A stretch of DNA of 64,000 nucleotides from an uncultured Nitrospirales bacterium (GTDB lineage: Bacteria; Nitrospirota; Nitrospiria; Nitrospirales; NS-4), in NCBI GenBank assembly GCA_964384595.1, contig CAYLLY010000002.1:16248-80247 (forward strand), written 5' to 3'. This document shows, in pieces, positions 29,860-51,463 of the stretch; position 1 is the stretch's first letter, and the number at the start of each line of letters is the position of its first letter. Under the pieces are notes generated by a model. It ran no database searches and was not told where the DNA came from. It worked only from the letters and a program-made list of their open reading frames with translations. The position numbers and the translations under genes are program-made.

Positions 29860-30646
29860 TGATCAATACCTTTGTGCGGTTGACGACCCAGGCGCCCGTG
29901 ACAAGAGCAGCGCTTGTAATGCTCACGAAAATCAACCAACTGATGGGATGAAAGGTACCTAGGAGCACATCGCGAAACGCGATGACCACATGCGCCAGAG
30001 GGTTCAACAAGATGAATTGCCAGAACCGTTCGCCGACCATTTGCTCGGACAACAATACAGGCGAGAAATAGATCATTAGACCCAGCAGCACCGAGACGAT
30101 CTCACGCAGATCCTTGAGTAGCACACCAGCGATCATCAGTATCCAGGACAGTCCGAACATCAGCCCCGCAAGCAGTAGTAGGGGCAGCGGTATTAGAATA
30201 ATACTCCAGGCCAAATGACCGGTCACTGAAGCAAGCAGCAGATAAACGACAAGTACGATCGCAGGACTGAGTGCACTTGCCAGCAACGCCGTCAACGGCA
30301 AGGTTTCGATGGGATAGATGACCTGCTTCAAGGTCTCCATTCGGTCTCGCACCAGGGACGGTGCTTCCTCAAGAGCTCGCTGCAGTATCTGCCAGGCAAC
30401 GATGCCAGAGAGTACATAAAGAGCATAGTCGAACGCTCCAGCATTCGGCGCCAAGCGCGCACCAAAAACGTAGGATACAATGACAACGTAGGCAACAACC
30501 TGCACAAATGGTCTGAACAGCAGCCAGCCCAAGCCGAGGATCGCTCCTTTATTGGCCACCTTGAGTTCGCGCGCCGCCATAGCACGAGCAAATGGCCAGT
30601 TGTTCACAAGCGACGAAAAGACGCGGCCTGCCGCTCCCGCAGTCAT
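29846..30646 (-). CDS. wzm: Polysaccharide ABC exporter permease Wzm (ABC-2 type)
   Basis: 266 aa with ~6 TM helices. N-terminal ARELKVANKGAILGLGWLLFRPF is typical of Wzm/TagG/KpsM. Confidence 0.85.
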   Translation of the reverse strand: MTAGAAGRVFSSLVNNWPFARAMAARELKVANKGAILGLGWLLFRPFVQVVAYVVIVSYVFGARLAPNAGAFDYALYVLSGIVAWQILQRALEEAPSLVRDRMETLKQVIYPIETLPLTALLASALSPAIVLVVYLLLASVTGHLAWSIILIPLPLLLLAGLMFGLSWILMIAGVLLKDLREIVSVLLGLMIYFSPVLLSEQMVGERFWQFILLNPLAHVVIAFRDVLLGTFHPISWLIFVSITSAALVTGAWVVNRTKVLINEYI

Positions 30647-32256
30647 GGCGCACTCACTTCATCAACCGCAATTGGAGCAGGCTGGGCAACCGCTGGCACA
30701 GCGTAGGCAACGTAATAGTCCGATTCCGCGACTTTCCGAAGCTGCGTGTAGTCGTAATCCCAGCCGACGATATTACGCAGTTGTTTGGTTATCACAGTCA
30801 ATCCGATCACATAGGTGACGCCATATTCTTCAAATAAAGGCCACCAATTCTTCTTAAGAAGTGGAACATCTTCAACGAATTTTTCATACAAGGAAGGCGT
30901 AACCGCAGCCCCCTGGTACATCAGCACACGGCAGGCTGGAGCCCGCATCCAGATACTGCCCCCCAGTGTGAAGGGTATCGGAAACACGGTATCTTTATCG
31001 CGGAGCCCCAGTGGGGCGAGAAAAGTTGCCAGTTCATCATGCTTGGGGCAAGGGAAACACTGCCATTGGTAATAAAACCACAACGTGAGCAAGCCAACTG
31101 AACAGAAATAGGCCGGTATCAGCAGATGATTGAGTTCCGGGCTGACTATCTTTACCGCATAAAGAGCGAGGAAGAACGGAACACCCAGGGCCAAGTTGAA
31201 TTCGATGTAACGCGCTGCCTCACCGAAATGATTGAACAATTTAGTCGAGGTTAGAAGGTAGACGGCAAGCGTCGCCAGCACAATGGCAAACAGAGGCGGT
31301 GCCGCCAGCACAGGCCATATGAGAAAAACGCTGACAAATAAAATGATATTGGGATGTTGCAGGAGTAAGCGAGTCGGCTCACCGGTCGCTAGTTCGTTGA
31401 GGCGAGCTTGCAGAGCGATGCCGCGCCCGAAGACACGCCGCCAATTCACGAATCGGCTGAGCGCCGGTTGAATGAAGGCGCTTCGCTTGGTATGGCGATT
31501 GTAGGCTTGGGCTAATGTTACCATGTGCCGCAGGCCCCGTAGAAAATATCCGCGATCGAGCAGCAGCGCGCCGACAAAGGCCGCAGCCAAGACTAGCAAA
31601 GGCGTCCCGTCGAACAAGAACAGGGCAACAAGCGGTGTAGTGAAAGTAACCGTTTGACGACCGAAGATCGAAGAGATGCCCACAAGCGCGCCGACGAACA
31701 CTGCCAAGGCCAGGGACAATTTGTCGCCGAAGCCGACCCCAACGGCCAGCAACAAAAAGAACCAGCTGCAGCTCAATTGCGCAAGCAGGCGCTCTGACAG
31801 CGAAATATAGAGGATCGCATTTGCGTTGAAGACCAAATTTGAAACCGAGACAAGATAAAAGGCTGCAGCCCACACCACGAGATTGTGTTCTTGAGTCAGA
31901 AGAAGATTCTTTTCGATATAATGCACGTACATAACAAAACCGGCAAACGACACCGCAAAGATACCGAGGCTGGGCAGATACTGATACCTTTTGATCCAGT
32001 CCAGCGGCAATAGCGAAGCCAGGCGGTGAAATGCGATGGGATAACTGTCTGGTTCCTCTTGCATGAGGAAGGCCGGCACTCCTGAATACCGTCCGTTTTG
32101 TTTGAGGGTGTGGATGACGGCATAATGCAGCGCTGAATCCCACACGATGCCCTGCCTGAACCATTTGCGATAAATGAAAATAATGCACCCACGGACCAGT
32201 AGAGATGCCACTGCTGCATAAATGGCGAGGCTTCCGTACTCAATAACTGAATCCAT
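30643..32256 (-). CDS. Large polytopic membrane protein of unknown family (about 12 TM) with a ~120-aa soluble C-terminal domain
   Basis: 537-aa ORF. Hydrophobic throughout until ..FPCPKHDELATFLAPLGLRDKDTVFPIPFT..KNWWPLFEEYGVTYVIGL. Its stop forms an ATGA overlap with the wzm start. Confidence 0.6.
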   Translation of the reverse strand: MDSVIEYGSLAIYAAVASLLVRGCIIFIYRKWFRQGIVWDSALHYAVIHTLKQNGRYSGVPAFLMQEEPDSYPIAFHRLASLLPLDWIKRYQYLPSLGIFAVSFAGFVMYVHYIEKNLLLTQEHNLVVWAAAFYLVSVSNLVFNANAILYISLSERLLAQLSCSWFFLLLAVGVGFGDKLSLALAVFVGALVGISSIFGRQTVTFTTPLVALFLFDGTPLLVLAAAFVGALLLDRGYFLRGLRHMVTLAQAYNRHTKRSAFIQPALSRFVNWRRVFGRGIALQARLNELATGEPTRLLLQHPNIILFVSVFLIWPVLAAPPLFAIVLATLAVYLLTSTKLFNHFGEAARYIEFNLALGVPFFLALYAVKIVSPELNHLLIPAYFCSVGLLTLWFYYQWQCFPCPKHDELATFLAPLGLRDKDTVFPIPFTLGGSIWMRAPACRVLMYQGAAVTPSLYEKFVEDVPLLKKNWWPLFEEYGVTYVIGLTVITKQLRNIVGWDYDYTQLRKVAESDYYVAYAVPAVAQPAPIAVDEVSAP

Positions 32257-32364
32257 GCCCTGTCTTCGATTGGATCGACTGTGCAGCTTGCCTCAGGCAA
32301 ATCTGCGTAGCTTGACTTCGTGAAAGAAAGCAGGATCTAGAAACCTGGTGCGAAGAGCTGGATT

Positions 32365-33465
32365 TCAACCCCCACGATGGCTTGGTGCATGCATCAGAAA
32401 GTCGGTTAGCTTGACGCGGCTATAGGCAAAATGTCCGTCGGCATTTCTCTCCCAAACGTTGGTGTAAGCATCCCATAGATCGCAACGTTGACAAACTGGG
32501 TAGTCATCGAGCTCAAGCTTGCGGTGAGCTTCGCGAAACTTGCGGAAAGCCGCGGATTGCCAAATCACATCGAGCGGTTGTTCGTTGATGTTGCCGATGA
32601 TTTCGTCCTTAGTTTCTTTGTGCCAATGGTATATGTAGCACGGCATCACATCACCGTTCGAGCGGATTGCAGTCGAGTACCAAGGCTGGATACAGGGATA
32701 CCGATTCTCGTTTTTCGTCTTTTCGTGCAGCGGCGTCATGCCATCGATCTCGCGCCCGAGATTGTAAAGAGGTCGCACAAAGGCATAGTCAACGTACTGA
32801 GACCAGTGTTCCAGAAATGCCTCGAGCGTGTACTTGCTCTCCTTGGACTCCATCATAAAGGTCTGGATGTAAGGTTTATCCGACTTCAGTTCCTGCCTGA
32901 TCTGCCACGCGCGCCGGATGTTTTCACAAATTCGATCGAAAGACTTAGCCCCAGTTATCATCTCGTGATCCTTGGCGTTCTGAGCGAACAGGCTGATCTG
33001 GAGGTTGTCTAGGCCACTGTCGACAAGCGCACGAAATATTTCCTCAGTCAACATCAGTCCGTTGGTGGAAATAACCGAATTCACCAAAGGACGCTGCTGC
33101 TTCATGTATTTGACGAATTCAGGCAAGGATTTGAACAGTAGCGTCTCGCCAATCGCCGAAATGTCAAAGCTGTAATAGGAATCGTTGGGAATACAGGCAA
33201 CGATGTTCTTCAGAGTCTCGAAGCTCATCTCTGAGCCCTGTCTGTACATGTCCCGCACTTCCGTTTCGGCATACGGACACATTTTGCATGCGAACATGCA
33301 TGTCTCTTCATTAAAGGAAATATTGATTACTCGAGGTAGCCACTCGTTGTAAAGGAAGAGCTTTTGTCCAGCCATCGTCTGCCTCAGGAAGTTCGCTGCA
33401 AATCCCTTCAACGATCGTGTGGACACCAACTTCTCGAACACACTCGTTTCCTTAACGTGGCTCAT
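32365..33465 (-). CDS. Radical SAM enzyme with twitch/SPASM-type auxiliary Cys motif
   Basis: 366 aa. CX3CX2C reads CMFACKMC (..EETCMFACKMCPY). C-terminal CIQPWYSTAIRSNGDVMPC fits CX12GX4C, followed by a CQRC pair. Confidence 0.85.
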   Translation of the reverse strand: MSHVKETSVFEKLVSTRSLKGFAANFLRQTMAGQKLFLYNEWLPRVINISFNEETCMFACKMCPYAETEVRDMYRQGSEMSFETLKNIVACIPNDSYYSFDISAIGETLLFKSLPEFVKYMKQQRPLVNSVISTNGLMLTEEIFRALVDSGLDNLQISLFAQNAKDHEMITGAKSFDRICENIRRAWQIRQELKSDKPYIQTFMMESKESKYTLEAFLEHWSQYVDYAFVRPLYNLGREIDGMTPLHEKTKNENRYPCIQPWYSTAIRSNGDVMPCYIYHWHKETKDEIIGNINEQPLDVIWQSAAFRKFREAHRKLELDDYPVCQRCDLWDAYTNVWERNADGHFAYSRVKLTDFLMHAPSHRGG

Positions 33466-34401: not shown

Positions 34402-35495
34402 TCGGCGCGCAGCCGGGAGTACGATGGCGAGTCAGGTGTTGTAGCGAACGCTTGACAGATAGGATGCATCAACGCCTCGGCCTCTGCATCCGTCGCGGCA
34501 AGACCTCGACCTCTGGCTCTCGCAAGCAGTTCTCCGACTTTCAGACCACCTAGGTGTAGATCGATAAGTGGCTGTGGTCCAACATAGGCTGTCGTCACGC
34601 TCATGTATCCGGCTCGCGCGAAATATTGGGGTGCTACCAGGAGGCCAGCTGCGACCAAGTCCGCCTGATCAACCTTTCCAGCGATGTGGATGACCGCCAA
34701 ACCAGGATTCAAGGTTGCGAGCATCCGTCCATCCAGGTGTCCTTTGGGTCCCAACAGAAGACTCCGGTTACGATGCTCCGCCACTATCAAGGCATCGGCC
34801 TCAGCAATTACCGATTCCATCTCCGGTGTATCAAGGCGATCTCCACCGAAGGGATCGATCTGTCGCACGTCCGCAGCAAGTTCCGACAAGGACTGCGTGA
34901 GGGCTAGACCGAAAGCGCCCCCGCCAACGACGACGAGACGACACCGCACGAGCTCTATACCGCACTCGAATAACAAACGCATCGCGACAGGACCCAAATA
35001 AGACATAGTTCCCAACTCAGGTACTCTTTCGTTGGTCCCGAGCACTGGGATTCCAAGCTGCCGGCAGACCGACAGATCAACATCTTCCTCGCGCAATTCC
35101 CAGGTCTCGAACATCAGCGAGACGACAGCGGTGGACTTGAGCCGCCCTAATAACGTAGCATCGAGCGGACGAACGAAGCCCAGATTGGTGACGATGTCGG
35201 CCTCTGAAACGCCGGGGTGGTCGCGTATTGAAATGACTTTGACACGTCCTCCTAAGCCCCAGGCTTCCGCTATCTCCATCGTTTGCGCTTGCGCCTCCTC
35301 AAGCGTACCGTACCAAGACTCGCGAGAGAGTGCATATACACGCCGTGCTCCGGCCAATGCAGCGAGAGAGGCAGTCAGGGCGTAGGGTCCCGTCGCTGCC
35401 TCGGTTAGTACGACGAGATCAGTCAAATCTAAATGCAGTGCCTCGATGCTACGCCGGGCGAGACGCCAGCAACGTTTGACATTCAGGCTATGCAT
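34398..35495 (-). CDS. Two-domain Rossmann/NAD-binding dehydrogenase-like protein, family not recognised
   Basis: Track ORF trimmed to ATG 35495 (MHSLNVKR). RLVVVGGGAFGLAL..DVRQIDP fits a GxGxxG plus acidic beta2 end. I recognise no other family motif. Confidence 0.5.
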   Translation of the reverse strand: MHSLNVKRCWRLARRSIEALHLDLTDLVVLTEAATGPYALTASLAALAGARRVYALSRESWYGTLEEAQAQTMEIAEAWGLGGRVKVISIRDHPGVSEADIVTNLGFVRPLDATLLGRLKSTAVVSLMFETWELREEDVDLSVCRQLGIPVLGTNERVPELGTMSYLGPVAMRLLFECGIELVRCRLVVVGGGAFGLALTQSLSELAADVRQIDPFGGDRLDTPEMESVIAEADALIVAEHRNRSLLLGPKGHLDGRMLATLNPGLAVIHIAGKVDQADLVAAGLLVAPQYFARAGYMSVTTAYVGPQPLIDLHLGGLKVGELLARARGRGLAATDAEAEALMHPICQAFATTPDSPSYSRLRAD

Positions 35496-37419
35496 GGATC
35501 CAGTCTGGCCCGAAGGCATCGTGAGCGACACCCACTGGCCGCTCGCCGCCGAGAAAGGTTCGGCACCACTGCTCAACGCTGAGCAGTGACCAGATCAGCA
35601 ACCGGCAGTTTACCTTGCCTTCCAAATGCTCGGACACCAGGCCCTGCACGGTATCCCGGTCAAGAAAGTTGTAGATGGCCGCGTCCCGCCCCATTAACCG
35701 GCGGCGAACGTACTCGATACTCTCCCCGCGGAACCAACTGGCGTCGGGAGCGGAAAATCCCTGTTTGATCCCGTCGGTGACTTCGGCCGGGATATAGCGC
35801 TGCATCACCTGGCGTAAGAGCAATTTGCCGTCGCGGGTCTTCTCGAAATAGATGCGCGACTTATCGCCAGGTTGGTTCTCGTTGATGCGGATCACTTCGC
35901 CGATCTTGCTCAGCTTGAGTCGAACCGGCAGGCGCATGACAAAATCCACCAGGTCGTTGTCGAGGAACGGCACCCGCGTCTCGATCCCGTGGGCCATACT
36001 CAGTTTGTCCTCAACGACCAGCAGACCGTGCAGGAAGGTCTTGGCCTCGAAATAGAGCGAGTGATTGATGTAGTCCTCAGGGCGCGTGAGTTCCTTGGCA
36101 TGACGGTGAAACACGTCGCGGAAGATGTCGCGCGTCCAGACCTTTTCGACCTGCGGCCAGATCGGCCGGAAGACCTGGCGGATGATGGAATTGGGAATCA
36201 ACCGCTGCCAATACGCGTAATACTTGTCAATATAATGTTCGAAATCCTCGTTCGCGACCGCACGGTAGTACCGCCAGGGATAGCCGCCGAACAACTCATC
36301 ACCGCCCGTGCCGGCCAGCACCACTTTGCCGAACCGGCTCGCTAACCGGGCGGCATAGAAATTGGGATAGCTCTGCCCGACACGCGGTTCATCGAGATGC
36401 CACATCATAAGAGGCAGCACGCGTTCCATATCGCCGGCCTTGAGCACCATTTCGTAGTGTTCAGTGCCGAACAGGTAGGACATATGTTCGGCCTTGTCGC
36501 GCTCATCAAAGGCCAGCTCAAGGCCGGAGGCTGAGTGCAAATCGAAGCCGACCGTGAAGGTTTTCATGCCAGGGAACTGCCGCGCGGCAATCGCCGCAAT
36601 GGAGCCGGAATCCATCCCTCCCGAGAGATACGCGGCCACCGGGACGTCGCTCACCAGTTGGCGGCTGACTGCCTGGCGGAACAGGCGGTCCAGCTCTTCG
36701 GCGTATTCCTCCTCCGACGCCGTTTCCGCCGGCTCGCCAAAGCCATAATCCCAGTGCCGCTGGACGATCGGCTCGCCCTTCTGCGCATCAATCGTAAGCC
36801 AGCAGCCGGCCGGCAGCAGCTTGACGCCTTTGAACAGGGTGCTGTCGGTGAAGAAATTCTGAAACGTCATGTACTCCAGCAAGGCGTCCGGATCCATATC
36901 CACCCGCATGGCCGGATGCGACAGCATGGCTTTGATCTCCGAGCCGAAGAGGAACACACCGGGCCGTTCGGCATAGTAGATGGGCTTGATGCCATACCGA
37001 TCGCGAGCGAGGACCAGTTCTCTCTGCCGGCGATCCCAGATCGCAAAGGCGAACATGCCATTCAGCAGTTCCAGCGACTTGGGGCCCCAGGCCGCCCAGG
37101 CATAAAGCACGACTTCGGAATCGGTGCGCGAGCGGAATTGATAGCCCATCGCTTGCAGCTTGGCTCGCAACTCCTGGAAATTGTACACTTCGCCGTTGTA
37201 GCTCAGGACAAACCGGCCGTCGGCGCTCAGCATGGGCTGGTGGCCAGCGGCGGACAAGTCGATGATCGCCAGCCGCCGGTGGCCGAGGCCGACCGGGCCG
37301 TCAAGAAACTTCCCCTCCCCGTCAGGTCCCCGGTGACTGATCGCGTCCGTCATCTGCTTCAGCAGGACGGGCGATGCCGATTCATCCGAAAAATTCATGA
37401 TTCCAGCGATACCGCACAT
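35488..37419 (-). CDS. AsnB-type glutamine-hydrolysing amidotransferase, paralog 4
   Basis: Track ORF trimmed to ATG 37419. MCGIAGIMN, HRGPDGEG, YNGEVYNF, TDSEV, YLSGGMDSGS. Confidence 0.9.
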   Translation of the reverse strand: MCGIAGIMNFSDESASPVLLKQMTDAISHRGPDGEGKFLDGPVGLGHRRLAIIDLSAAGHQPMLSADGRFVLSYNGEVYNFQELRAKLQAMGYQFRSRTDSEVVLYAWAAWGPKSLELLNGMFAFAIWDRRQRELVLARDRYGIKPIYYAERPGVFLFGSEIKAMLSHPAMRVDMDPDALLEYMTFQNFFTDSTLFKGVKLLPAGCWLTIDAQKGEPIVQRHWDYGFGEPAETASEEEYAEELDRLFRQAVSRQLVSDVPVAAYLSGGMDSGSIAAIAARQFPGMKTFTVGFDLHSASGLELAFDERDKAEHMSYLFGTEHYEMVLKAGDMERVLPLMMWHLDEPRVGQSYPNFYAARLASRFGKVVLAGTGGDELFGGYPWRYYRAVANEDFEHYIDKYYAYWQRLIPNSIIRQVFRPIWPQVEKVWTRDIFRDVFHRHAKELTRPEDYINHSLYFEAKTFLHGLLVVEDKLSMAHGIETRVPFLDNDLVDFVMRLPVRLKLSKIGEVIRINENQPGDKSRIYFEKTRDGKLLLRQVMQRYIPAEVTDGIKQGFSAPDASWFRGESIEYVRRRLMGRDAAIYNFLDRDTVQGLVSEHLEGKVNCRLLIWSLLSVEQWCRTFLGGERPVGVAHDAFGPDWIHA

Positions 37420-39609: not shown

Positions 39610-41529
39610 CTAGAATTGGTTCCCGTGCCTGTTCATCTTGACCAAAGGCCTGTACCGCACATGCATCGTGTCCGCTGAAACGCCGAATCTCATGAGGGAC
39701 TCGCCGATGACACCCCACACCGGATCATCCGGCTCGATCGGCGCATGCACATCTCCAACCTTATATCCGTCAACCACACCCCACCAGTTCTCCCCATGTC
39801 CTTGGGGATGGATATTCACAACAAACTTGCGCCCTTTCGCATACACGTTCAAGAAATGCTGGCGGTATTTCTGGCTGGGAATGGTCAGAACGGGCACATA
39901 CGACTTATCGACACCGCTCGAGATGAGCGATGTAGCCATCCCGTCTGGGCCTCCGTCAATCTCGAAATAGTCGAGCAGCGTTCGTCGCACGTCTCTGGTA
40001 TCTGCTAAGCGGTGCTTGTGGCCTAGGGCGCCAGGGCCAAAGATGACTAGCGGAACGCGGGTGACTTCTTCCTCATTGTGATAGCCATACCAGATCTTGC
40101 CCTTGGAAAGGATACTGCCATGATCAGCCGTCATAATCACCAATGTGTTCGAACTCCATCCATGCTCGCCAAGGTAATCCAGTACCTGTTGGATCCTCTT
40201 CCCATACTCATCAGCTCGGGCTCGATACTCTTGCCGTACGTGCTCCACCAACGGTTCATCTTCCGGCTGATATCTGTAATCGTTCTTGATCGCCCTTTGG
40301 TAGAAATCGAACAGTGTGCTTGCCCCCTCCGACTTATCAGCCAAAGCCTGCACATTTTGCTCCCCAAAGGAAACATGCACGAGCAGAAAGGACTTGTTGC
40401 TGTTGGAATGTAACTCCGCCACCTGTCTGGGGATGTTTTGACTCCATAGAATATCTTCGTTCAATCGTCCATTGGTTAGGCGATACAATAGCTCGGTGCG
40501 CTCACCCATATATTTACGTGAATCTTCCCATGCAACGAACGTGTGATAGTTCAATCCCAGGTAGGCCGGCAGCCAGTTCCAATTTTCTGTAACAAACGCG
40601 GATCGCAAACCCGTGTACTGAGTTACGCTGTTGGACTCAGGAAGGCCGCTTGCGTGAAAGGATATCCAGCGCGTGGTTACTCCGTGCTCTTGTAGAACAT
40701 TCAGAAGGTTGTGCCTGAGCCCCCCTTCACCACGACCACCTATCGAGAGGTTCATTCGTCCCGAGTACAGGACGCTAAAAAACCCGTTTGTATACACTTT
40801 GTTAGTGCGCACGTTTGTGAACACTAATCCTTGCTTCATCACGCGATCAAGCGCCGTCTCCTCGGCCCCCTGGTTGTATGTACTCAGGAGCTGAGAGGGC
40901 ATTCCGTCGATGACCAGGAGGATTACATGCTTTTCCATCCCATCTGGATTTGTCCTCTTGGCCAGATTGGAAAGCGCCGCATACGCGAGCCCGCCGGCAA
41001 AGACTACGAGTCCGACTGCGGTTGCAATTCCCGCAAATTGCCTCACACGGTTACGCACCGTAGGTATATCCCGTAAGCTTCTAAGGATCAGGCTTCCGAA
41101 AACGATACTTCCAATTAGCAATGCGCTAAGCCACCGAATGTCCTCGATTTTTCCCGATATGGTCTCCACGCCGAAGACCACACATCCTGCGAGGGTCACC
41201 ATGACAACCGCACCGTCCAGCGCCTGGAGAGCTTTGTGCCTCCAGATCGCTGGCAGCAGCCTTGTTCCTAATACCACGCCAACGATCAAGATGAACAGGA
41301 GGAGTACCAGCGCCGAAGTAAAATAGAGATAGCTCAGCCAATCGCTGTGAAAAAGTAGGAGATCATCAGAGAGCCCTTGGAGGAAAACGACCAAAAGCAG
41401 CGCAACGGTATAGAGAGTGGCGATACGTCCGGGTTCAAGCATGACCGCAGAGGAGGATCCTTCGGGTTGGCCGATCAGAGTCATATTCCTGGATGGTACG
41501 GAAATATCGTCCCAATGCTTGTTTGACAT
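39610..41529 (-). CDS. Membrane-anchored alkaline-phosphatase-superfamily ('sulfatase-like') transferase/hydrolase
   Basis: N-terminal TM bundle followed by HVILLVIDGMPSQ..KVYTNGFFSVLYSGR..LVIMTADHGS. No C/S-x-P-x-R formylglycine motif. The true start is probably internal (ATG 41484 or 41442), because 41529 would overlap the upstream gene by 95 nt. Confidence 0.75.
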   Translation of the reverse strand: MSNKHWDDISVPSRNMTLIGQPEGSSSAVMLEPGRIATLYTVALLLVVFLQGLSDDLLLFHSDWLSYLYFTSALVLLLFILIVGVVLGTRLLPAIWRHKALQALDGAVVMVTLAGCVVFGVETISGKIEDIRWLSALLIGSIVFGSLILRSLRDIPTVRNRVRQFAGIATAVGLVVFAGGLAYAALSNLAKRTNPDGMEKHVILLVIDGMPSQLLSTYNQGAEETALDRVMKQGLVFTNVRTNKVYTNGFFSVLYSGRMNLSIGGRGEGGLRHNLLNVLQEHGVTTRWISFHASGLPESNSVTQYTGLRSAFVTENWNWLPAYLGLNYHTFVAWEDSRKYMGERTELLYRLTNGRLNEDILWSQNIPRQVAELHSNSNKSFLLVHVSFGEQNVQALADKSEGASTLFDFYQRAIKNDYRYQPEDEPLVEHVRQEYRARADEYGKRIQQVLDYLGEHGWSSNTLVIMTADHGSILSKGKIWYGYHNEEEVTRVPLVIFGPGALGHKHRLADTRDVRRTLLDYFEIDGGPDGMATSLISSGVDKSYVPVLTIPSQKYRQHFLNVYAKGRKFVVNIHPQGHGENWWGVVDGYKVGDVHAPIEPDDPVWGVIGESLMRFGVSADTMHVRYRPLVKMNRHGNQF

Positions 41530-42838
41530 CGGCCAAGCTATAGCGAATTGGCCGAACCGTTTCTAGCAAGTCTATATTCGAATCGCGTTGGTCTATGTAT
41601 TCAAAGATGGCGAACTGTGTTCCGAGCTGACTCAGCAAAAAAGCGATGCGATCCAGCGACTGCCGTCCGTTTATGTATAGGTGATGCATGAGACCCAGGC
41701 AGAAGACCATGTGCGAACGCGCGCGCTCAATCACACCAGGGTATTGATTGCCAAGGAAGCCGCACGGGGGAGTGGGAGCGAGCAAGTCCACCACCAACGG
41801 CAGTATGTCTAAGCCCTGCCGCTTCGCGTAAGCGTACAAGTGCGCAATGCATGCTTCACTTTTATCGAGAGAGATAACCCTGGCGCCGCATTCCGCGGCT
41901 AAGACCGAGAAGGCTCCTGTATTGCAACCGAGGTCAACCACGGTCGGAGGCTGAAGACGGATTAGCAACTCACGCACTGTGGAGAGCTTCCTTTGTTTAT
42001 CTATTCCTGGTTCGACCTGAACATAATAGTTACTCCACGCATCTTTCACGCCACTAAATTCTAACCGCTCCAAGCGTTTGAGGAGTCCCCTGAAGAATCG
42101 TTTCCTCACCGCCACATCGATCTCGCTGCCTTGGCCTGCCGCAAGCTCCCGAACCGCTTTCTTGAGCTTTCTGTTTGTCTGAAGCAAGCGATCCAGGAAC
42201 GGTGTGATAGCCAGATAGGAGTGTCTCAACAGGTATCCAAGTCCAACGTTCGTTACGAAGTCCTGTAACGTTATTCCGTTGATTGTGTCATAGAGTAGCG
42301 CTCTCCCGACTTTGCCCTTGTTGATCGCAGCCAAGTGCAGGGGACGCATGAAAAAGCTCTGGAATTGGCTGTACGCCGGCCAAAGCAGCCGCGCCTGTGT
42401 AGGCACAATGGACGTGAAGTCAATGAACCTTGGCCGTGTACCTTGAAACCTGACATTCCAAGGAGAAGCGTCTTGAAGCATCATGTGCTGTGAAGCCAAC
42501 TCGATGGACAATTCTAGATGTAGGCGCGCCGCATCCCGTAGCATCGAGGGGCACCACTCGACACAGTATGTGGCAGGCTCGACCACCTCATGTTGGACCA
42601 CAAGGTCACATCCCACATCGGCCAGGTATAGCTCGCTAAGCTCAGTGCGAACCAGCCCGAACCTCTCGTGCAGCCGTTGAGCGATTCCATCGCTGATCAT
42701 GCGTCGATAGAAGTCTGCGCTCTCTTTAAATATTGCCCGGAATATGCCGCGGTCCGTGTGAAAAACAAAACCGTGTGGGTCCACATAGGACGACGGATCG
42801 ACACGCCAAGCAGAGTGCCCACTGTCAAGCTGAGTCAC
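41435..42838 (-). CDS. Bipartite protein: kinase-like N-terminal module + C-terminal class I SAM methyltransferase
   Basis: 467 aa with GTG start. Residues ~120-142 read MLQDASPWNVRFQGTRPRFIDFTS (D-x4-N ... D pattern). The C-terminal part has VVDLGCNTGAFS motif I and FCLGLMHHL. Confidence 0.7.
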   Translation of the reverse strand: MTQLDSGHSAWRVDPSSYVDPHGFVFHTDRGIFRAIFKESADFYRRMISDGIAQRLHERFGLVRTELSELYLADVGCDLVVQHEVVEPATYCVEWCPSMLRDAARLHLELSIELASQHMMLQDASPWNVRFQGTRPRFIDFTSIVPTQARLLWPAYSQFQSFFMRPLHLAAINKGKVGRALLYDTINGITLQDFVTNVGLGYLLRHSYLAITPFLDRLLQTNRKLKKAVRELAAGQGSEIDVAVRKRFFRGLLKRLERLEFSGVKDAWSNYYVQVEPGIDKQRKLSTVRELLIRLQPPTVVDLGCNTGAFSVLAAECGARVISLDKSEACIAHLYAYAKRQGLDILPLVVDLLAPTPPCGFLGNQYPGVIERARSHMVFCLGLMHHLYINGRQSLDRIAFLLSQLGTQFAIFEYIDQRDSNIDLLETVRPIRYSLADVKQALGRYFRTIQEYDSDRPTRRILLCGHA

Positions 42839-42907: not shown

Positions 42908-43186
42908 CTATTTGACCTCTTCTTCCTCAATCTTGTTGGAGGACACCGGCCGGCGAAAAGTACGCTCGAAGAGAACTTTAAGGTATCGCCATGGTCTCAA
43001 TAGCCATGCGACGAGGGTGCCAAAAAAGAACACATATACAAGCTGGTACAAAACTCCTAAGATGCCAGGGTCAACGTATGCCCAGGCCAGAGTTGGCGTA
43101 ACAACAAACAACACAACCAGTACAACCAACCTGCCCCATTTAGCCACACTGCTGCCTTTCTTTTCATATCGATGAATTTCTCTCAT
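42908..43186 (-). CDS. Small membrane protein (2 predicted TM helices), unknown function
   Basis: Track ORF trimmed to ATG 43186, 2 nt after the upstream stop. MREIHRYEKKGSSVAKWGRLVVLVVLFVV..AYVDPGILGVLYQLVYVFFFGTLVAWLL, with an acidic tail EEEEVK. Confidence 0.55.
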   Translation of the reverse strand: MREIHRYEKKGSSVAKWGRLVVLVVLFVVTPTLAWAYVDPGILGVLYQLVYVFFFGTLVAWLLRPWRYLKVLFERTFRRPVSSNKIEEEEVK

Positions 43187-45503: not shown

Positions 45504-46271
45504 TCACTTAAAGTCCCGCCTTTGGAAGACCACACATGCCATGATCAGGATGACGGCGCTGTAGAGCATCCCGTACGCCACTGCAAAGACGAGGTACGAG
45601 GTCTCGATCGGAAGTCCATGCACCGCCTGCCCTTTGACGTTGAAATATTCGAGATTGGGGAGCAGATAGTAGAGCCCGTCGAGAATCGCCGTGGTCGCCT
45701 CACCCTTCAGTTTGGCGCCCAACAGCCTGAGATCGGCGGTCATATGACCGATCACATAAATCGCCATGCTGAAGGTGGCGCTCAGGGTCGTGGTGGTGAA
45801 GGTGGAAAACATCACCGCGACCGCGACGATCACCAGCAATTCGACCACGATCATGGCAATGGCCTTGAAGAGCCCCGCGTCGAACCCGATCCTCGCCACG
45901 AGAAGAATGAGCACATACCCCACCACCATGATCGCGGTGTTCACCAGAAGCGTGATCGTCAGACCGAAGTACCGCCCCAGGAGAAATTGATAGCGCGGCA
46001 CAGGCTTCGCGATGATGGTGTAAATCGTCCGTTTCTCGATTTCCTTGCTGACCAGCCCGATCCCCACGAAAATGGCGATCAAGACGCCGAACAGGTTGAT
46101 GCCGGCCAACCCAAGGTCCTTGATGATCTTGGCCTGCTCGCCCATGCTGAGCGTGCTCAGGAGGGTCGAACTGCCGATCATGAGCAGCCCGAAGAACACC
46201 AGGTTATACAGAATCTTGTCCCGGATGTTCTCCTTGAAGGTGTTGAGGGCGATCACGGTGATCCGGTTCAC
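45504..46271 (-). CDS. ABC-2 family transporter permease
   Basis: 255 aa with ~6 TM helices. NTFKENIRDKILYNLVFF..SKEIEKRTIYTIIAKP. GTGA overlap with the ATPase gene stop. Confidence 0.8.
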   Translation of the reverse strand: MNRITVIALNTFKENIRDKILYNLVFFGLLMIGSSTLLSTLSMGEQAKIIKDLGLAGINLFGVLIAIFVGIGLVSKEIEKRTIYTIIAKPVPRYQFLLGRYFGLTITLLVNTAIMVVGYVLILLVARIGFDAGLFKAIAMIVVELLVIVAVAVMFSTFTTTTLSATFSMAIYVIGHMTADLRLLGAKLKGEATTAILDGLYYLLPNLEYFNVKGQAVHGLPIETSYLVFAVAYGMLYSAVILIMACVVFQRRDFK

Positions 46272-47200
46272 GCGCGGCTTCCCTCCATCTCATTGAGAAA
46301 AAGGTCCTCCAGGGACCGTTTGTGCGGCACGAGCGACACCAACCGGCCCGCATGCCGACGCACGATGTCGAGGAGCGCGCTCACTCCCGCTTCGTCTTCC
46401 AGCTTGATCAACGCCTGATGGCCTCTTCGGACCACTGTCCCGCCCAAACGGCTCGCCTCCTGGATGCCGGCTTCCGCCAGCCCTTCCACGACGATCTCGA
46501 CCGACGTCACGGAAGCGGCTCCCACCAGTTCATGGACGGCCCCCACGGCCCGGAGGCGGCCCCGGACGAGGATCCCGACTCGATCGCAGATCATCTCGAC
46601 ATCCGGCAGGATATGGGTGCTGAAGAAGACCGTCTTGCCTCCCTCGCGGAGCCGGAGAATGATGTCCCGGACATCGCGCCGTCCGATGGGGTCCAGCCCC
46701 GACATCGGTTCGTCCAGGATGACCAACCGCGGGTCGTTGATCAGCGCTTGGGCCAGGCCGATCCGTTGAAGCATTCCTTTCGAAAATTTCCTGAGCGGAA
46801 GGCGCCGGGCATCGACCATGCTGACCATCTCCAACAGTTCATCGACCTTGCGTGCCAGCGGCGCGCCCCCGAGTCCGAAGAGTTGCCCGTAGAAGAGCAA
46901 AAACTCTTCGGCCGTCAGGTATTCGTAGAAGTAGGGCGATTCGGGGAGAAACCCCACGTGCTGCTTGACGGCCACGTCCTCGATCGGCCGTCCCAGAATG
47001 CGCGCCGTCCCCGCCGTCGGCGCAAGCAAGCCCATCAGCAGTTTCAGGGTCGTGGTCTTGCCGGCTCCATTATGCCCCAAAAACCCGAAGATTTCGCCCT
47101 GCTCCACCTCCAGGTCCAGCCGGTCGAGGGCCAGCACCCGCCGGCCCCGCAAGCCGAGACGAAACTCTTTCATCAAGCCAATGATCTGAAGCGGTTTCAT
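46268..47200 (-). CDS. ABC transporter ATP-binding protein (partner of the ABC-2 permease)
   Basis: 310 aa. Walker A GHNGAGKTT, signature FSKGMLQR, Walker B LVILDEPMSGLD. Confidence 0.88.
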   Translation of the reverse strand: MKPLQIIGLMKEFRLGLRGRRVLALDRLDLEVEQGEIFGFLGHNGAGKTTTLKLLMGLLAPTAGTARILGRPIEDVAVKQHVGFLPESPYFYEYLTAEEFLLFYGQLFGLGGAPLARKVDELLEMVSMVDARRLPLRKFSKGMLQRIGLAQALINDPRLVILDEPMSGLDPIGRRDVRDIILRLREGGKTVFFSTHILPDVEMICDRVGILVRGRLRAVGAVHELVGAASVTSVEIVVEGLAEAGIQEASRLGGTVVRRGHQALIKLEDEAGVSALLDIVRRHAGRLVSLVPHKRSLEDLFLNEMEGSRA

Positions 47201-48075
47201 CGCGGCATCCGTGTGCCGTAGAGCTTCATGCGCTCTTTCACCTCGCTGCTGCGGACCGTCTGGGTCTGCGGATCGTAGAGGTAGCGGCCGCCGAATGGCT
47301 CACGCGGGAGCTCGCGCAGGAGACCCGGCCTCACCAGATCCTCCAACCGCGCGGGCGCCCTCTTATGGAGCGCTCGGTACCGGTGAATGGTTTCCTCCAG
47401 CAGCAGGAGGTCCCGCTCCACCACCACCTCCTTGATCCGCTGTTCCAGCACCCGCCTGACATTTTCGTCCGCGGTGTGCTCATACACCTGAGCGAGAAAC
47501 ATGAGGGCGTCCTGCGGCGTATGGGCCGAGACGTAGAGCCTCGCCGCCAATCCCGCCAGATACGCCGGCGCCTCAGGCAGCCGGGACGCGCTGGCGATGT
47601 ACTGGGCCGCCTTCGCGTCGTCATAGTCATTGTAATAATAGTTGAATCCCAGGAGAAAGGGCAGATACCAGTCGTCCGGATTGTGCTCGATGCCCTTGAG
47701 CAGCAGCCGATTGCTTTCCGCAGGGAGCGGAACCAGGGTGGTAAGGGCGATCCCGCCAGCCCGGTACACGCGCACAAACCACGGGTCCAGCGTCGTGATC
47801 ACGTCCAGCGCATGCGCGATCCAAGCCCCCGCCTCCAGCGAGACTTTGCGTTCTCCCATGGCCTGGATGGCCTGCAGCCACAACACATCGGCCGCCACCT
47901 GGTGGTAGCCCAGGACCGCCATCCTGAGCTGTTCGCCGCTGGGCAGGTACATGAACCGCTGCAGCTTCGGAACGGCGGCTCGCTGGCGATCGAGCCCCAC
48001 CTGAAGGGCGTGCAGCCCCAGGATGAGGACCGCTCCGCCCAGCCACAAAAGCGCCAGTCGAGTCGTGCGGCTCAA
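47197..48075 (-). CDS. Membrane-anchored helical-repeat (TPR-like) protein, unknown function
   Basis: 292 aa with TTG start (TTGA overlap). One N-terminal TM helix (LALLWLGGAVLILGL), then helical-repeat-like sequence. Translationally coupled to both neighbours. Confidence 0.55.
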   Translation of the reverse strand: MSRTTRLALLWLGGAVLILGLHALQVGLDRQRAAVPKLQRFMYLPSGEQLRMAVLGYHQVAADVLWLQAIQAMGERKVSLEAGAWIAHALDVITTLDPWFVRVYRAGGIALTTLVPLPAESNRLLLKGIEHNPDDWYLPFLLGFNYYYNDYDDAKAAQYIASASRLPEAPAYLAGLAARLYVSAHTPQDALMFLAQVYEHTADENVRRVLEQRIKEVVVERDLLLLEETIHRYRALHKRAPARLEDLVRPGLLRELPREPFGGRYLYDPQTQTVRSSEVKERMKLYGTRMPR

Positions 48076-50027
48076 GGGACATCCACCGACGCGCGCAACC
48101 GCTTCAGCGCGGCGTCGTCCACCTCCAGGAACTGGCGTTCGAGCGGATTCAGCGTCCCCCCCCGGTAGCGCTCCATCACCTTAACAATCTCGCCGTATTC
48201 CGCACGCGCCGCCTCCGTCAGCCCTTCCCGCAGCGCGAGTTCGGCCAGCCGAACTCGCGCCGGCAGAAAGTTGGGCTCGTAGCTTTTCGCGAGCACGAGC
48301 CAGGCGATCGCCTCCTGGTCGCGGGCCTGAACCAACCGGACCCGGCTGAGGTCATAATAATAGAGCGGTGCGTAGGGATCTAACTGGAGCGCGTGTTCGT
48401 AGGCGGCCGCCGCCTGTTGCAGCAGCGCCCCTCGCTTGTCCCCGTATTCGGGGCGCTCGGCTAACAGCACGCGGACATTGCCTTCTCGGTGGGCAAGACG
48501 CGCATCTTGCGGATTCAGGTTCAACGCAATCCTGAATTCCTCCGCCGCATCGAGCAGCCACCGAACATTGCCGGATTGCTCGTAGAGCCGGATCTTCGTC
48601 AGGGCGATGGCGTCCCGGTAGGCGGTCGTTCCGGGTTCAATGCGCGTCGCCCATTGATACCAGCCCCAAGCCCGCTCCACCCGTCCGGCCGTCATCTCGG
48701 TTTCCCCTCTGTCGAACGCATACCAGGCGGCAGCCGGCCTGACGATGAGCACCGTCGCCAGAACGGCCAGGACAACGACCGACGCCGTGCGGGCTGGATG
48801 GGAGGCGAACGGAACCCTCCACACTGCCGACTCGTTGGGCGAACTCCGCCGTTTGACGACCACGATCAAGCCCGTAAACAGCACGCCCAACATCGCCAGG
48901 GCCGGCTGATGAAATACCGAATCCATGGCGGCATGCGTGAGCAGGCTCAGGAGGCCTCCGGCCATGCCGACTAAAAGTCCCTGTTCCCGGACATCCGGAG
49001 AGCGGCCGAGCGCGCCGCGCCACTCGGCGCCCACAAGCCATACCCCCGCCACGAAGACCGCCAGTCCCACCACGCCGAGTTCCACGCCCATTTGGAGATA
49101 TTCGTTATGCGCGGATTCTGCTCGCTTGGCGTAGCGGGCAACCGTACCCTCAACGGGGAAGCGGTACCGGAACGAAGTGTATTTATACATGCCGAGCCCC
49201 GCACCCCACGGATGATCGAGGATGCGCTGCAGGGAGTTGTGCCAGATATCCAGCCTCGTATAGGCGTAAGGGTCCTGCGCCCCGACGGTCTGCAGGCGTT
49301 GCCTCATGGGGTTCGGGACCAACAAGAGCACCAGCACACCCAGCAACAGCACTCCGAGAAACGCGCGTCTGAACCGGAAACATCCCACGAACGCGAGGGC
49401 GACTACGCATGATACCAAGGCTCCCCTGGACTGAGACAGAAGGAGTCCGAAGAAGCCGAGACCGGCCGACAGCCATACCCCCGCCCGCTCCCACCGTCGC
49501 CCTTCCCATTCGCAACCGAAGCAAAGCAGACCCAGTGCGACCGCAAGCACGGCCGATTCATACGCGGCAAAGAAGTTGGCATTGAAAAACGTCCCGGTGG
49601 CCCTGGACTGTTCCATCCAGACCACCTGGTACACACCCAGCACGGCCCCCAATGACCCAACGGCCAGCACAACGAAAAGCAACTTTCGGACATGCTCGAT
49701 GGATTCGATCAGATGGAGCACCAGGAAGAACAGCACGGCGTAGCTTATCAAGCTGAGCATCCACTGCAAGGCCGGGGCGGTATAGGGCGCACGCACGGCG
49801 CAGATAGCCGCCCATGCCAAGAATGCCAGAAGCGGCGTGAACAGGCGTGTCGTCCGGGTTACCAGTGCGCCGGATTTCATCGAAACAAGCCCCCACCCGG
49901 CAAGCATGGCAACGAGCGTGAAGCGGATGATGAGAACCGGAAGGTGAGTCGTTCCCCCTTCGATCAGCGGGGCAAAAGCGTACACCCCTCCCAGAACGAC
50001 GATCGGGAGGGGCATCTGGCGGGACAC
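48072..50027 (-). CDS. Wzy_C / O-antigen-ligase-family polytopic membrane protein with C-terminal TPR domain
   Basis: 651 aa; start is GTG 50027 or ATG 50015. LSQSRGALVSCVVAL..RLDIWHNSL..AHNEYLQMGVELGVVGL is the Wzy_C pattern. The last ~200 aa are TPR-like. Confidence 0.8.
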   Translation of the reverse strand: MSRQMPLPIVVLGGVYAFAPLIEGGTTHLPVLIIRFTLVAMLAGWGLVSMKSGALVTRTTRLFTPLLAFLAWAAICAVRAPYTAPALQWMLSLISYAVLFFLVLHLIESIEHVRKLLFVVLAVGSLGAVLGVYQVVWMEQSRATGTFFNANFFAAYESAVLAVALGLLCFGCEWEGRRWERAGVWLSAGLGFFGLLLSQSRGALVSCVVALAFVGCFRFRRAFLGVLLLGVLVLLLVPNPMRQRLQTVGAQDPYAYTRLDIWHNSLQRILDHPWGAGLGMYKYTSFRYRFPVEGTVARYAKRAESAHNEYLQMGVELGVVGLAVFVAGVWLVGAEWRGALGRSPDVREQGLLVGMAGGLLSLLTHAAMDSVFHQPALAMLGVLFTGLIVVVKRRSSPNESAVWRVPFASHPARTASVVVLAVLATVLIVRPAAAWYAFDRGETEMTAGRVERAWGWYQWATRIEPGTTAYRDAIALTKIRLYEQSGNVRWLLDAAEEFRIALNLNPQDARLAHREGNVRVLLAERPEYGDKRGALLQQAAAAYEHALQLDPYAPLYYYDLSRVRLVQARDQEAIAWLVLAKSYEPNFLPARVRLAELALREGLTEAARAEYGEIVKVMERYRGGTLNPLERQFLEVDDAALKRLRASVDVP

Positions 50028-50055
50028 GCGCTCACTTCCCCACAGACTCGCCGGG

Positions 50056-50092
50056 CGAAAAGCGCACGGGGGATCGGAGCGCCCCCGCGCGC
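50056..50092 (-). terminator. Candidate intrinsic terminator/attenuator downstream of pilin gene 1
   Basis: Minus strand reads GCGCGCGGGGG-cgctccgat-CCCCCGTGCGC followed by TTTTCG. That is an 11-bp GC-rich stem with one G.U pair, a 9-nt loop and a 4-U tract, about 30 nt after the pilin stop. Confidence 0.5.
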
Positions 50093-50121
50093 ACTTGCCA
50101 CGAACAGGCGACGATCCGAAC

Positions 50122-50616
50122 TTACGTGGAAACGTCGTTGGTGGTGTTCACCAGCAGCCGGCCATTGTCGATTGTCCACTGATCGCATACGGTAGTCTCG
50201 CCGTCGACATCCCCAATCGCCCCCGCCGTGAAGGCGGAAGCGGTGACCGTCACGTTGACGCCCGCCGAGTCCTTCGGCGGGTTCGTTCCGTGGCAGCCCG
50301 AGGTGGCTGAGTTGGAGCCGGTGTTGATGCGGAATGCCCCTGTACTCCCGCCATAATAGAACGAGTACCGCGGCGCGCCGCTCGGCGCATAGCCGATCTG
50401 GGTGGCCGACGTTACCGTGAAGGTGCTGTTTTCGGCAAAGTAGGCCGTGGCGGAGGTGAAGATACCTCCGAGCCCGACCTTGGCTTCCGACTGCCGCGCC
50501 TTGGCCTGGTAGGTCATAAAGTTCGGAATGGCGATCGCCGCCAAGATCCCGATGATCGCCACGACGATCATCAACTCAATCAGCGTAAAACCCTGTTCCT
50601 TTTTCATAGGCTGCAT
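50122..50616 (-). CDS. pilA: Type IV (type IVa-like) major pilin
   Basis: 164 aa. Leader MQPMKKEQG then [24 protein letters not shown] (Gly-1/Phe+1/Glu+5). C-terminal Cys pair. AAGGAGGG sits 6 nt upstream of the ATG. Confidence 0.92.
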
Positions 50617-50704
50617 CGCAAGCCCTCCTTTAGTTTAAACTTTCAGCCGCATCCACATCGTACTCAAAACTGAATTTTCCCAGACTGCAAACCTTAATTC
50701 TATA

Positions 50705-50720
50705 AGCAAAATGCGTGCCT
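50705..50720 (-). promoter_or_regulatory. Sigma-54 (-24/-12) promoter for pilin gene 1
   Basis: Minus strand reads AGGCACG-CATT-TTGCT. It matches TGGCACG-N4-TTGCW with correct GG/GC spacing, about 90 nt upstream of the ATG at 50616. Confidence 0.65.
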
Positions 50721-50885
50721 TGCATCGATCTTGAAATTTCAAGCTAATATTGTGAAATACTTACAGGTGCCTGTATGCACTTATCCCTTTTGTTAATGGC
50801 GTGTGACATTTTTCTGTCAAGAGGAAGCCGTAAATTGTTCCTTCCTGTCCGGCACCCCTCAAAACGGCACTCCAGAGTCGCGCCC

Positions 50886-51392
50886 TCAGTTCAAGACATC
50901 GTTACTGGTATTCGTCAAAATTCTTGCGTCGTCGATAGTCCAATCATCACAGGCGGCATCCCCATCGGCGTTTCCACGGGCCGCCGCCGTAAAAGCGGAC
51001 GTCGAAGCCGCGACTTCTGCTGGAGCGACAGTCACATTGCAGGGGGTCGTCGCCGTACTCCCCCCTGAGATAGCAGTAGCGGTGCCGCTAACCGCAAACC
51101 AGTAAGAGTATCGCGGAGTTCCGCTCACCAAAAAGCCGAGGTTGCCTATGCTTGTGATGGCATACGTCCCGTATTGCGCAACCATCGTCGACGTCGCCGC
51201 CGTGAAAATCCCCCCGAGATTCACCTTGGCCTCCGACTGCCGCGCCTTCGCCTGATAGGTCATAAAGTTCGGGATGGCGACCGCCGCCAGAATCCCGATG
51301 ATCGCCACCACGATCATCAACTCGATGAGGGTAAAGCCTTGCGCTCCCGTCAGCTTGCGATTGGGCAACGGCAATCCTCGCTTCAGAATCAC
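50886..51392 (-). CDS. Type IV pilin, second tandem paralog
   Basis: ..NRKLTGAQG then [25 protein letters not shown]-terminal Cys pair. No ATG start is available. GTG 51392 (GAGGT upstream) or TTG 51368 (GAGGA 6 nt upstream) are candidates. The track start 51455 lies at or above the predicted transcription start. Confidence 0.85.
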
Positions 51393-51463
51393 GCATACCT
51401 CAACCCCACCCTTAAAAACACGCACCCAGCAGACCAGGGTCGAAGCGCTAGGCAACGAATACA

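Follow-up and report, generated by a model that had tools for sequence, protein, structure and literature searches.

Two described systems come closest to the gene considered here. WbdD of Escherichia coli O9a and Klebsiella O3 (Protein Data Bank (PDB) 4AZS, 4AZW and 4UW0) joins a methyltransferase to a kinase that resembles those of eukaryotes yet acts on a sugar, and it methylates the phosphate that it has added. The NoeA/Lani_1194 family, a large family of many bacterial phyla and some archaea that includes the host-range nodulation gene noeA, was described by Krysinska et al. in 2022 as a class I methyltransferase preceded by a newly predicted kinase domain (Sci Rep 12:21782, PMC9758233). 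Here we analyse a protein of 467 amino acids (aa) encoded, from a GTG start, at 41435–42838 on the minus strand of a 64,000-nucleotide stretch of DNA from an uncultured Nitrospirales bacterium (the window). It is a member of the NoeA family, with equivalents of the catalytic residues of WbdD in both of its domains. We consider it most likely, with a probability of about 0.55, that by analogy with WbdD this protein phosphorylates and methylates, on the cytoplasmic side of the membrane, a glycan of the envelope, its action being coupled to that of a NoeB-like partner outside the membrane.

The earlier work supplies the residues and the architectures with which the protein can be compared. In WbdD, kinase activity is abolished by D351A/E, N356 and D369 bind two Mg ions, and H132 and H133 adjoin the methyl group of S-adenosylmethionine (SAM), with H132A and H133A losing phosphate methylation (PMC3482155). 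ORF6 of Klebsiella O7 is likewise bifunctional, in vitro first phosphorylating the end of a glycan and then adding a methyl group; compared with our protein by its published description, it has the methyltransferase first, an AmiN-like kinase, and a fusion to coiled-coil and GT2 (glycosyltransferase 2) polymerase modules (PMC11231755). Terminators therefore exist with non-WbdD kinase folds and varied module arrangements, and a coiled coil and a membrane anchor are consistent features of those known (PMC11231755). Members of the Lcin_0519 family, also predicted to combine a kinase and a methyltransferase, were noted beside Wzm/Wzt and likened to WbdD, but their authors set them apart as a separate family, distantly related and coiled-coil-bearing, to which our protein does not belong (PMC9758233). 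In the NoeA family itself, an Arg is equivalent to K72 of PKA, the ion-pair Glu is missing and the equivalents of D166, N171 and D184 are conserved; 94% of the ~2,000 homologues carry the methyltransferase, Lani_1193 occurs in 65% of neighbourhoods and Lani_1195/NoeB, with an alkaline-phosphatase fold, in 38%; and the domain arrangement was likened to that of WbdD (PMC9758233). An extensive interface between the two domains also counts among the traits of the family.

A NoeA-family protein with WbdD-like catalytic residues

A called gene on public metagenome contigs (P0001), found independently, encodes a protein 100% identical to the one in the window. The protein has no hydrophobic or transmembrane segment and is predicted to be cytoplasmic. 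An AlphaFold model of the full length, for which the family alignment was used, forms a single body (predicted local distance difference test (pLDDT) 90.5, predicted template modelling (pTM) score 0.90). In a Pfam scan residues 1–290 had no match at all and the methyltransferase only matches near threshold, and an NCBIfam scan of the protein was equally uninformative. Conservation was more telling: across 42 full-length homologues (40–57% identity) there is no variation at Q122, D123, W127, N128, D140, D302, G304, N306, G308, D325, H385 or H386, and because of this invariance the motifs described below are not chance occurrences.

The protein-kinase-like domain covers residues ~10–260 (42059–42811, minus strand), as delimited by a domain model, Foldseek and hhalign alignment to WbdD. 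When residues 1–262 were modelled separately (pLDDT 92.5), the 50 best Foldseek matches in the PDB were all protein kinases, among them CK2α, Csk, DYRK2, Syk, PKA and Src (E 6.5e-5 to 4.9e-4, probability 0.99–1.00, template modelling (TM) score 0.31–0.42); the whole model gave methyltransferases only, and the kinase fold emerged once this part was modelled alone. The catalytic-loop equivalent L121-Q-D123-A-S-P-W127-N128 (42455–42478) and the DFG-motif equivalent D140-F-T (42413–42421) both lie on the minus strand within residues 120–143 (MLQDASPWNVRFQGTRPRFIDFTS), with D140 twelve residues past N128. In HMMER and hhalign alignments, D123, W127 and N128 correspond to D351, W355 and N356 of WbdD, and D140 to the Asp of its I-D369-F-G. 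The N-lobe is less canonical. The β3 Lys position is held by R34, which is invariant in the 42 homologues, in Ensifer NoeA and in the Wzt-linked subfamily described below; no conserved αC Glu was found in the helix that follows β3 (residues 38–49) in the homologue alignments; and ‘S-S-Y-V-D-P-x-G’ stands in for the Gly-rich loop GxGxxG. WbdD, by contrast, has K252 at β3 (assigned from the sequence Y-V-C-K, with no tool alignment) and E274, which is without a counterpart in our protein. On the models, then, the N-terminal module is a diverged, atypical protein-kinase-like fold, in which ‘S-Y-V-D-P-x-G’ probably serves as the Gly-rich loop (compare Y230-A-G-A-G of WbdD).

The remainder, residues ~262–467 (41438–42055, minus strand), is a class I SAM-dependent methyltransferase, as assigned by Pfam, Foldseek and hhalign. 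Pfam methyltransferase models matched residues 300–354 with scores that fell just short of the cut-offs (for Methyltransf_25, E 1.5e-5 and 26 bits where 27 are required), and Foldseek, run with the full AlphaFold model, returned ChlM, WbdD, TehB and other class I enzymes (E 9e-9, probability 1.00). The domain has the Rossmann-like fold of its class, the SAM-binding motif I V300-V-D302-L-G304-C-N306-T-G308 (41915–41941, minus strand; residues 300–311 are VVDLGCNTGAFS) and an acidic residue, D325, after β2, with D302, G304, N306, G308 and D325 all invariant. Motif I aligns with L-D-L-G-C-A-Q-G of WbdD, and the H385-H386 pair (41681–41686, minus strand) was aligned by both hmmsearch and hhalign with H132/H133 of WbdD. 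The protein ends with this domain at residue 467; there is no coiled coil, and the longest helices of the model have at most 16 residues.

By sequence, WbdD was the best match of known structure for both domains. When all PDB sequences were searched with phmmer, E. coli WbdD came first (E 1.3e-5) and was the sole kinase-containing entry among the matches listed, with query residues 296–333 matching its motif I and residues 114–175 its kinase catalytic loop and DFG motif. A family profile brought the match to E 7.8e-11 and added a third stretch over the His-His motif. With hhalign, the kinase stretch aligned to WbdD 333–402 (40% identity, 68 columns, probability 80%) and the methyltransferase to WbdD 55–184 (29% identity, 116 columns, probability 96%, E 1.6e-9), a similarity that is remote, covering just 68–116 aligned columns. 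We obtained the WbdD gene from an E. coli O9 genome by blastn with a back-translated fragment, and checked the residue numbering; the gene encodes 708 aa and stands in the order wzm–wzt–wbdD–wbdA. Among all open reading frames (ORFs) of the window, the best match of WbdD is our gene (E 3.4e-8), whose product is the only one in the window to be WbdD-like in both domains. The two proteins have in common the catalytic Asp, the Mg-binding Asn, the DFG Asp, motif I and the His-His pair, and their catalytic domains are soluble and, as we infer for the protein of the window, act with adenosine triphosphate (ATP) and SAM. This residue-level equivalence, in both domains, to residues that are experimentally essential in WbdD provides a concrete handle on the family. 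The differences are equally clear: in WbdD the methyltransferase precedes the kinase, a C-terminal coiled-coil ruler of ~250 residues, a membrane-binding region and a WbdA-recruitment site are present, none of which our protein has, and the gene lies directly 3′ of wzm–wzt with a C-domain-bearing Wzt, to which our gene is not adjacent.

Membership of the NoeA/Lani_1194 family is established by several observations. A tblastn search against plasmids returned 65 records, mostly symbiotic plasmids (pSym) of Sinorhizobium, and matched the annotated ‘nodulation protein NoeA’ of Ensifer canadensis over residues 17–422, 87% of the query (27% identity, E 3e-28). Beyond this similarity along the full length, our protein and NoeA have the same domain order, Arg in place of the β3 Lys, no αC Glu, the conserved Asp, Asn and Asp, and the same flanking genes: in E. 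canadensis the order is nodL, a 71-aa hypothetical protein containing ‘A-H-A-Y-L-D-P-G-T-G-S’, noeA and noeB (‘sulfatase-like hydrolase/transferase’), and in the window the corresponding small-protein and noeB-like genes flank our gene on its own strand. They differ in setting, rhizobial noeA standing next to nodL in a nod operon and our gene in a large Wzm/Wzt-type glycan cluster.

The original prediction had read the C-terminal third as a class I methyltransferase, had taken an N-terminal D-x4-N motif with an Asp 12 residues on as kinase-like, had noted a domain order opposite to that of WbdD, and had supposed that other, uncharacterized long methyltransferases carry the N-terminal module too. 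All four points withstood analysis: the first through motif I, the near-threshold Pfam matches and Foldseek; the second through the invariant D123, N128 and D140, the kinases found by Foldseek for residues 1–262 and the profile match to WbdD in both domains; the third through the domain limits given above. As to the fourth, a profile of residues 1–262 found 4,220 cluster representatives (50% identity) at E ≤ 1e-3 and 3,179 at E ≤ 1e-10, and the best 150 matches are mostly 430–490 aa long with the domain N-terminal. The fusion as such is no novelty, however, as its kinase and methyltransferase domains have been on record, and compared with WbdD, since 2022 (PMC9758233). What is new is the division of the family into two subfamilies and the direct linkage of one of them to wzm–wzt with a Wzt C-domain.

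A conserved module and two subfamilies

Upstream of the gene, at 42908–43147 on the minus strand, a called gene encodes a 79-aa membrane protein in which a signal-peptide-like segment ending A-W-A precedes the motif Y-V-D-P-G, a single transmembrane helix and a tail rich in basic residues. Its homologues share the helix and the tail, their leader ends A-x-A and A-Y-x-D-P-G is invariant among them, and a search of the small protein against Pfam and NCBIfam gave no match. The downstream partner (39610–41442, minus strand; Pfam Sulfatase, E 2e-20) overlaps the 3′ end of our gene by 8 nt and encodes a NoeB-like protein of 610 aa with five transmembrane helices and the N terminus inside, in which the charge distribution puts the alkaline-phosphatase/sulfatase-superfamily domain outside the cytoplasm. 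When the protein is aligned with six homologues, Ensifer NoeB among them, D179-G180 and D440-H441-G442 are invariant, and a NoeB profile matched choline sulfatase (E 6e-13) as well as phosphonate monoester hydrolase, LtaS and YejM in the PDB. The position of the formylglycine Cys of sulfatases is held by Thr218 (‘Y-T-N-G-F’), 39 residues past D179, with Thr in 6 of the 7 homologues, and no C/S-x-P-x-R formylglycine motif was found in the alignment of this partner. The Thr nucleophile and the missing CxPxR led us to reject, for this subfamily, a true sulfatase, such as one acting on sulfated Nod factors; they point to phosphoryl rather than sulfuryl chemistry, and the partner is likely to be a phosphotransferase or phosphodiesterase of LtaS/EptA-like topology.

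This arrangement is widespread. The small-protein and noeB-like genes flank the homologue in all six of the loci first examined (the window and L003–L007) and in Ensifer, the NoeB-like partners in the six loci being sulfatase-family proteins of 600–650 aa whose genes overlap the 3′ end of the homologue. We then surveyed 47 genome loci by our own ORF calling and hidden Markov models (HMMs); they span Pseudomonadota, Nitrospinota, Planctomycetota, Bacteroidota, Bacillota, Chloroflexota, candidate phyla radiation groups and others. The small-protein gene was adjacent in 36 of them and a NoeB-like or sulfatase-family gene in 28.

Two details concern the small protein itself. Its family members have 70–90 aa (L003:9747–9998, L004:9655–9921, L005:9775–9984, L006:9727–9990, L007:9744–9989 and L008:6745–6960), and the ORF was overlooked by gene callers in 2 of 6 loci and is an unnamed hypothetical beside rhizobial noeA. 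Its invariant ‘Y-V-D-P-G’ (residues 24–28) resembles the near-invariant ‘S-Y-V-D-P-x-G’ at residues 17–24 of the kinase-like domain (42766–42789, minus strand), of which the Tyr is not retained in the Wzt-linked subfamily.

That subfamily has a different neighbourhood. At L046 (Acidobacteria), L049 (Verrucomicrobia) and L054 (Chloroflexia), homologues 30–33% identical to our protein are encoded immediately downstream of, and on the same strand as, genes for Wzm and for a Wzt with a Wzt_C domain (L046:7786–11380, L049:7853–11389 and L054:7910–11185), in the order wzm–wzt–kinase-methyltransferase that matches wzm–wzt–wbdD of E. coli. All three loci are without the small protein and NoeB, and their Wzt C-domains are mutually related (27–48% identity). 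In a metagenome scan seeded on these three proteins, which yielded 80 loci, a C-domain-bearing Wzt ends just before the kinase-methyltransferase gene in 13, two of them copies of L046; 35 of the 80 carry the small protein and not Wzt, and none carries both. Wzt-linked members of the subfamily were also seen at L061, L062, L069–L072, L079, L081, L082, L104 and L105. At L097 and L098, which have identical coordinates and are apparently the same sequence, Wzm and a 413-aa Wzt ending ~900 nt upstream are present, the latter with no C-domain match by HMM.

The two contexts, wzm–wzt with a C-domain on one side and NoeB with the small YxDPG protein on the other, correspond to separate sequence subfamilies. 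In a nearest-neighbour test, the closest relative of a small-protein-linked homologue was itself small-protein-linked for 66 of 67 proteins, and this was so for none of the Wzt-linked proteins. Our protein groups with the former: its nearest relative, L010, is 51% identical, and its best Wzt-linked match 33%. R34, E94, W95, D123, N128, D140, D302, G308, D325, R372, H385, E413 and Y433 are nevertheless invariant across both subfamilies and Ensifer NoeA, and from this invariance a chemistry common to the two is probable. In the literature that we searched, we found no link between the NoeA family and Wzt with a C-domain.

Possible roles at the envelope

On the reading that we favour, the protein would draw on ATP to place a phosphate on a sugar hydroxyl of a lipid-linked glycan of the envelope, on the inner side of the membrane, and would then use SAM to methylate the phosphorylated product, most simply at the new phosphate, as WbdD does. 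Its gene would be the middle one of a conserved, translationally coupled module, and NoeB, extracytoplasmic and with a Thr nucleophile, would transfer or hydrolyse the phospho-group after export. A precedent for such a division of labour exists in the lipopolysaccharide (LPS) core, where the cytoplasmic kinase WaaP and then periplasmic phosphoethanolamine transferases of the alkaline-phosphatase family act on the same sugar.

Several observations weigh against this proposal. The pair of β3 Lys and αC Glu is missing, which leaves ATP use plausible only, and the N-lobe of WbdD could not be aligned with that of our protein by sequence with hhalign. About a third of the evaluable loci have no recognizable NoeB, and the module also occurs at loci with no nearby glycan genes, as at L005, between a ribosomal-protein operon and rho. 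A 1995 study by Ardourel reportedly attributed no change in Nod factors to noeA or noeB. Furthermore, the His-His pair is present in NodS and RebM, enzymes that place methyl groups on sugar N or O atoms (PMC3482155), so the pair is compatible with acceptors other than phosphate.

The original prediction had cast the protein as a candidate chain terminator, in which role its methyl-phosphate cap would stop polymerization of the window's own ATP-binding cassette (ABC)-transporter-dependent glycan and be the export signal for the Wzt C-domain. The transporter is indeed there: the minus-strand array that contains our gene also encodes a Wzm-type ABC-2 permease (29846–30646; PF01061, E 2e-10) and a Wzt-type ABC ATPase of 427 aa (26982–28265; ABC_tran, E 2e-23) with a Wzt_C-like domain at residues 282–405 (E 1.2e-5, 25.7 bits, below the cut-off of 30.4; model positions 5–130 of 143), and no other protein of the window combines both WbdD-like domains. 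The sister subfamily, with identical catalytic residues, lies directly behind wzm–wzt with a C-domain in three phyla (L046, L049 and L054) and at least 10 further metagenome loci, an order seen in at least 12 independent loci, and two NoeB-type loci, L016 and L026, have Wzt with a C-domain within 10 kb, the Wzt of L016 being similar to that of the window throughout, C-domain included. A terminator role is thus plausible for the NoeA family and well supported by synteny for the sister subfamily, whose members, lacking a coiled coil, may be candidate ruler-less chain terminators. The subfamily of our protein, on the other hand, never directly adjoins Wzt, the two context classes separating cleanly by nearest neighbour, and Wzm/Wzt are absent within 10 kb in 5 of the 6 loci first examined. 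In the window, wzm and wzt are ~11–14 kb from our gene (wzt 13 kb off), no Wzt lies within ±10 kb of it (the nearby ABC ATPase at 46268–47200 is of the DrrA/GldA type), and two stand-alone methyltransferases sit right beside wzt. Our protein also has neither the coiled coil nor the membrane anchor that consistently mark known terminators (PMC11231755), and the similarity of the window to L016 may reflect shared ancestry of the whole cluster. The co-occurrence with C-domain-bearing Wzt thus held for the sister subfamily and not, as direct adjacency, for that of our protein. Because of this, the missing coiled coil and the rival methyltransferases beside wzt, we regard termination by this particular protein as a tentative minority reading. 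A wider variant, in which NoeA-family proteins are coiled-coil-less analogues of WbdD whose cap, depending on the subfamily, is either read by the Wzt C-domain or handed over to NoeB, seems to us unlikely. With such a hand-over, as would apply to the subfamily of our protein and to rhizobial noeA, the phosphodiester would be used or edited by NoeB, which might, for instance, move the glycan-phosphate to an acceptor in a transesterification that releases methanol. On this wider reading noeA and noeB, host-range genes known for 30 years, would gain a biochemical function, and periplasmic phosphodiester links could be formed by a new route that needs no ATP.

Two further explanations place the chemistry elsewhere. 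The substrate could be a lipid or its head group, with a modified phospho-head-group donor such as a methylated phospholipid or polyprenyl phosphate being made at the inner leaflet and moved by NoeB to a periplasmic acceptor, in the way that LtaS, EptA or BcsG use phospholipid donors. Translational coupling to a five-helix, LtaS/EptA-like protein of the alkaline-phosphatase superfamily with a Thr nucleophile would fit such a role, as would the presence of the module away from glycan clusters and of the family in Actinobacteria and Archaea, by which it is not LPS-specific (PMC9758233); yet WbdD, the closest characterized relative of both domains, acts on a sugar, the sister subfamily is embedded in wzm–wzt operons, and our protein has no lipid-binding feature or membrane segment, all of which makes a lipid substrate decidedly improbable. 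Least credible, to the point of being very improbable, is a reading in which the kinase-like domain acts as a protein kinase, or as a pseudokinase scaffold with no activity, and in which the sole chemistry is a conventional O- or N-methylation, of either a sugar or a small molecule. The nearest structures of the domain are indeed protein kinases (CK2, Csk, DYRK2 and PKA), it is without the canonical Lys-Glu pair and a typical Gly-rich loop and activation loop, and its His-His motif is common to the N- and O-methyltransferases NodS and RebM. Invariance of D123, N128 and D140 across distant phyla and both subfamilies would, however, be unexpected for a dead domain, and WbdD likewise resembles eukaryotic kinases while being a sugar kinase. 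As for a peptide substrate, the only obvious cytoplasmic peptide nearby is the tail of the small partner, and we rejected it as a kinase substrate as the tails are not conserved. Analogies with BcsE/F/G and with PptA, the pilin phospho-form transferase of Neisseria, which the two nearby pilin genes had brought to mind, were also set aside, as only the alkaline-phosphatase superfamily is common to them and the module is often found without pilins.

If the chemistry of the NoeA-family protein is WbdD-like, as we favour, glycan ends could be capped without a coiled-coil ruler, an alkaline-phosphatase-type enzyme outside the membrane might process a cap made in the cytoplasm, and noeA/noeB of S. 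meliloti would become a tractable test system. If it is not, the protein would be just another uncharacterized NoeA homologue in a glycan cluster.

The glycan cluster of the window

The minus-strand array from ~1 kb to 53 kb constitutes one large (~50-kb) glycan cluster, encoding a WecA-like initiating transferase, many GT4 glycosyltransferases, four AsnB-like amidotransferases, aminotransferases and epimerases. Its wzt is flanked by the two stand-alone class I methyltransferase genes (26053–26961 and 28262–28897, minus strand), neither product being significantly WbdD-like by phmmer; by analogy with O8-type WbdD, they compete with our protein as candidates for adding a methyl-type cap at the terminus.

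The closest counterpart is at L016, from Latescibacterota, whose Wzt is 51.7% identical to that of the window overall and 33.5% in the C-domain. Besides Wzt and all three genes of the module, the two loci have in common an epimerase and a GT-like protein, which could reflect functional linkage or a shared origin of the cluster. Neither the Wzt C-domain of the window nor those of the NoeA-linked loci showed any resemblance to that of E. coli O9a Wzt, a result that is neutral on the epitope recognized.

A second ABC system, distinct from Wzm/Wzt, occupies 45504–48075 on the minus strand, with the DrrA/GldA-type ATPase (46268–47200), an ABC2_membrane_2 permease (45504–46271) and a 292-aa protein with no family match (47197–48075). 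The four asparagine-synthase-like glutamine amidotransferases are encoded at 35488–37419, 17336–19261, 13278–15173 and 8332–10296, all on the minus strand; for the first, which is the one tested, the best NCBIfam model was the XrtA/PEP-CTERM system amidotransferase, below its cut-off. Together with a PrsT-like tetratricopeptide repeat (TPR) protein (51586–53412), they suggest an exosortase-type exopolysaccharide flavour. PilA-type pilins (50122–50616 and 50886–51455, minus strand) are encoded directly upstream of a 651-aa Wzy_C protein, O-antigen-ligase/PglL-like and with a C-terminal TPR (region 48072–51455), and these genes may serve pilin O-glycosylation or a ligase step for the glycan of the cluster. 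Between the NoeB module and wzm (30643–33465, minus strand) lie genes for a radical SAM/SPASM protein (32365–33465) and for a 537-aa protein with no family match (30643–32256), which is uncommon content for a polysaccharide cluster.

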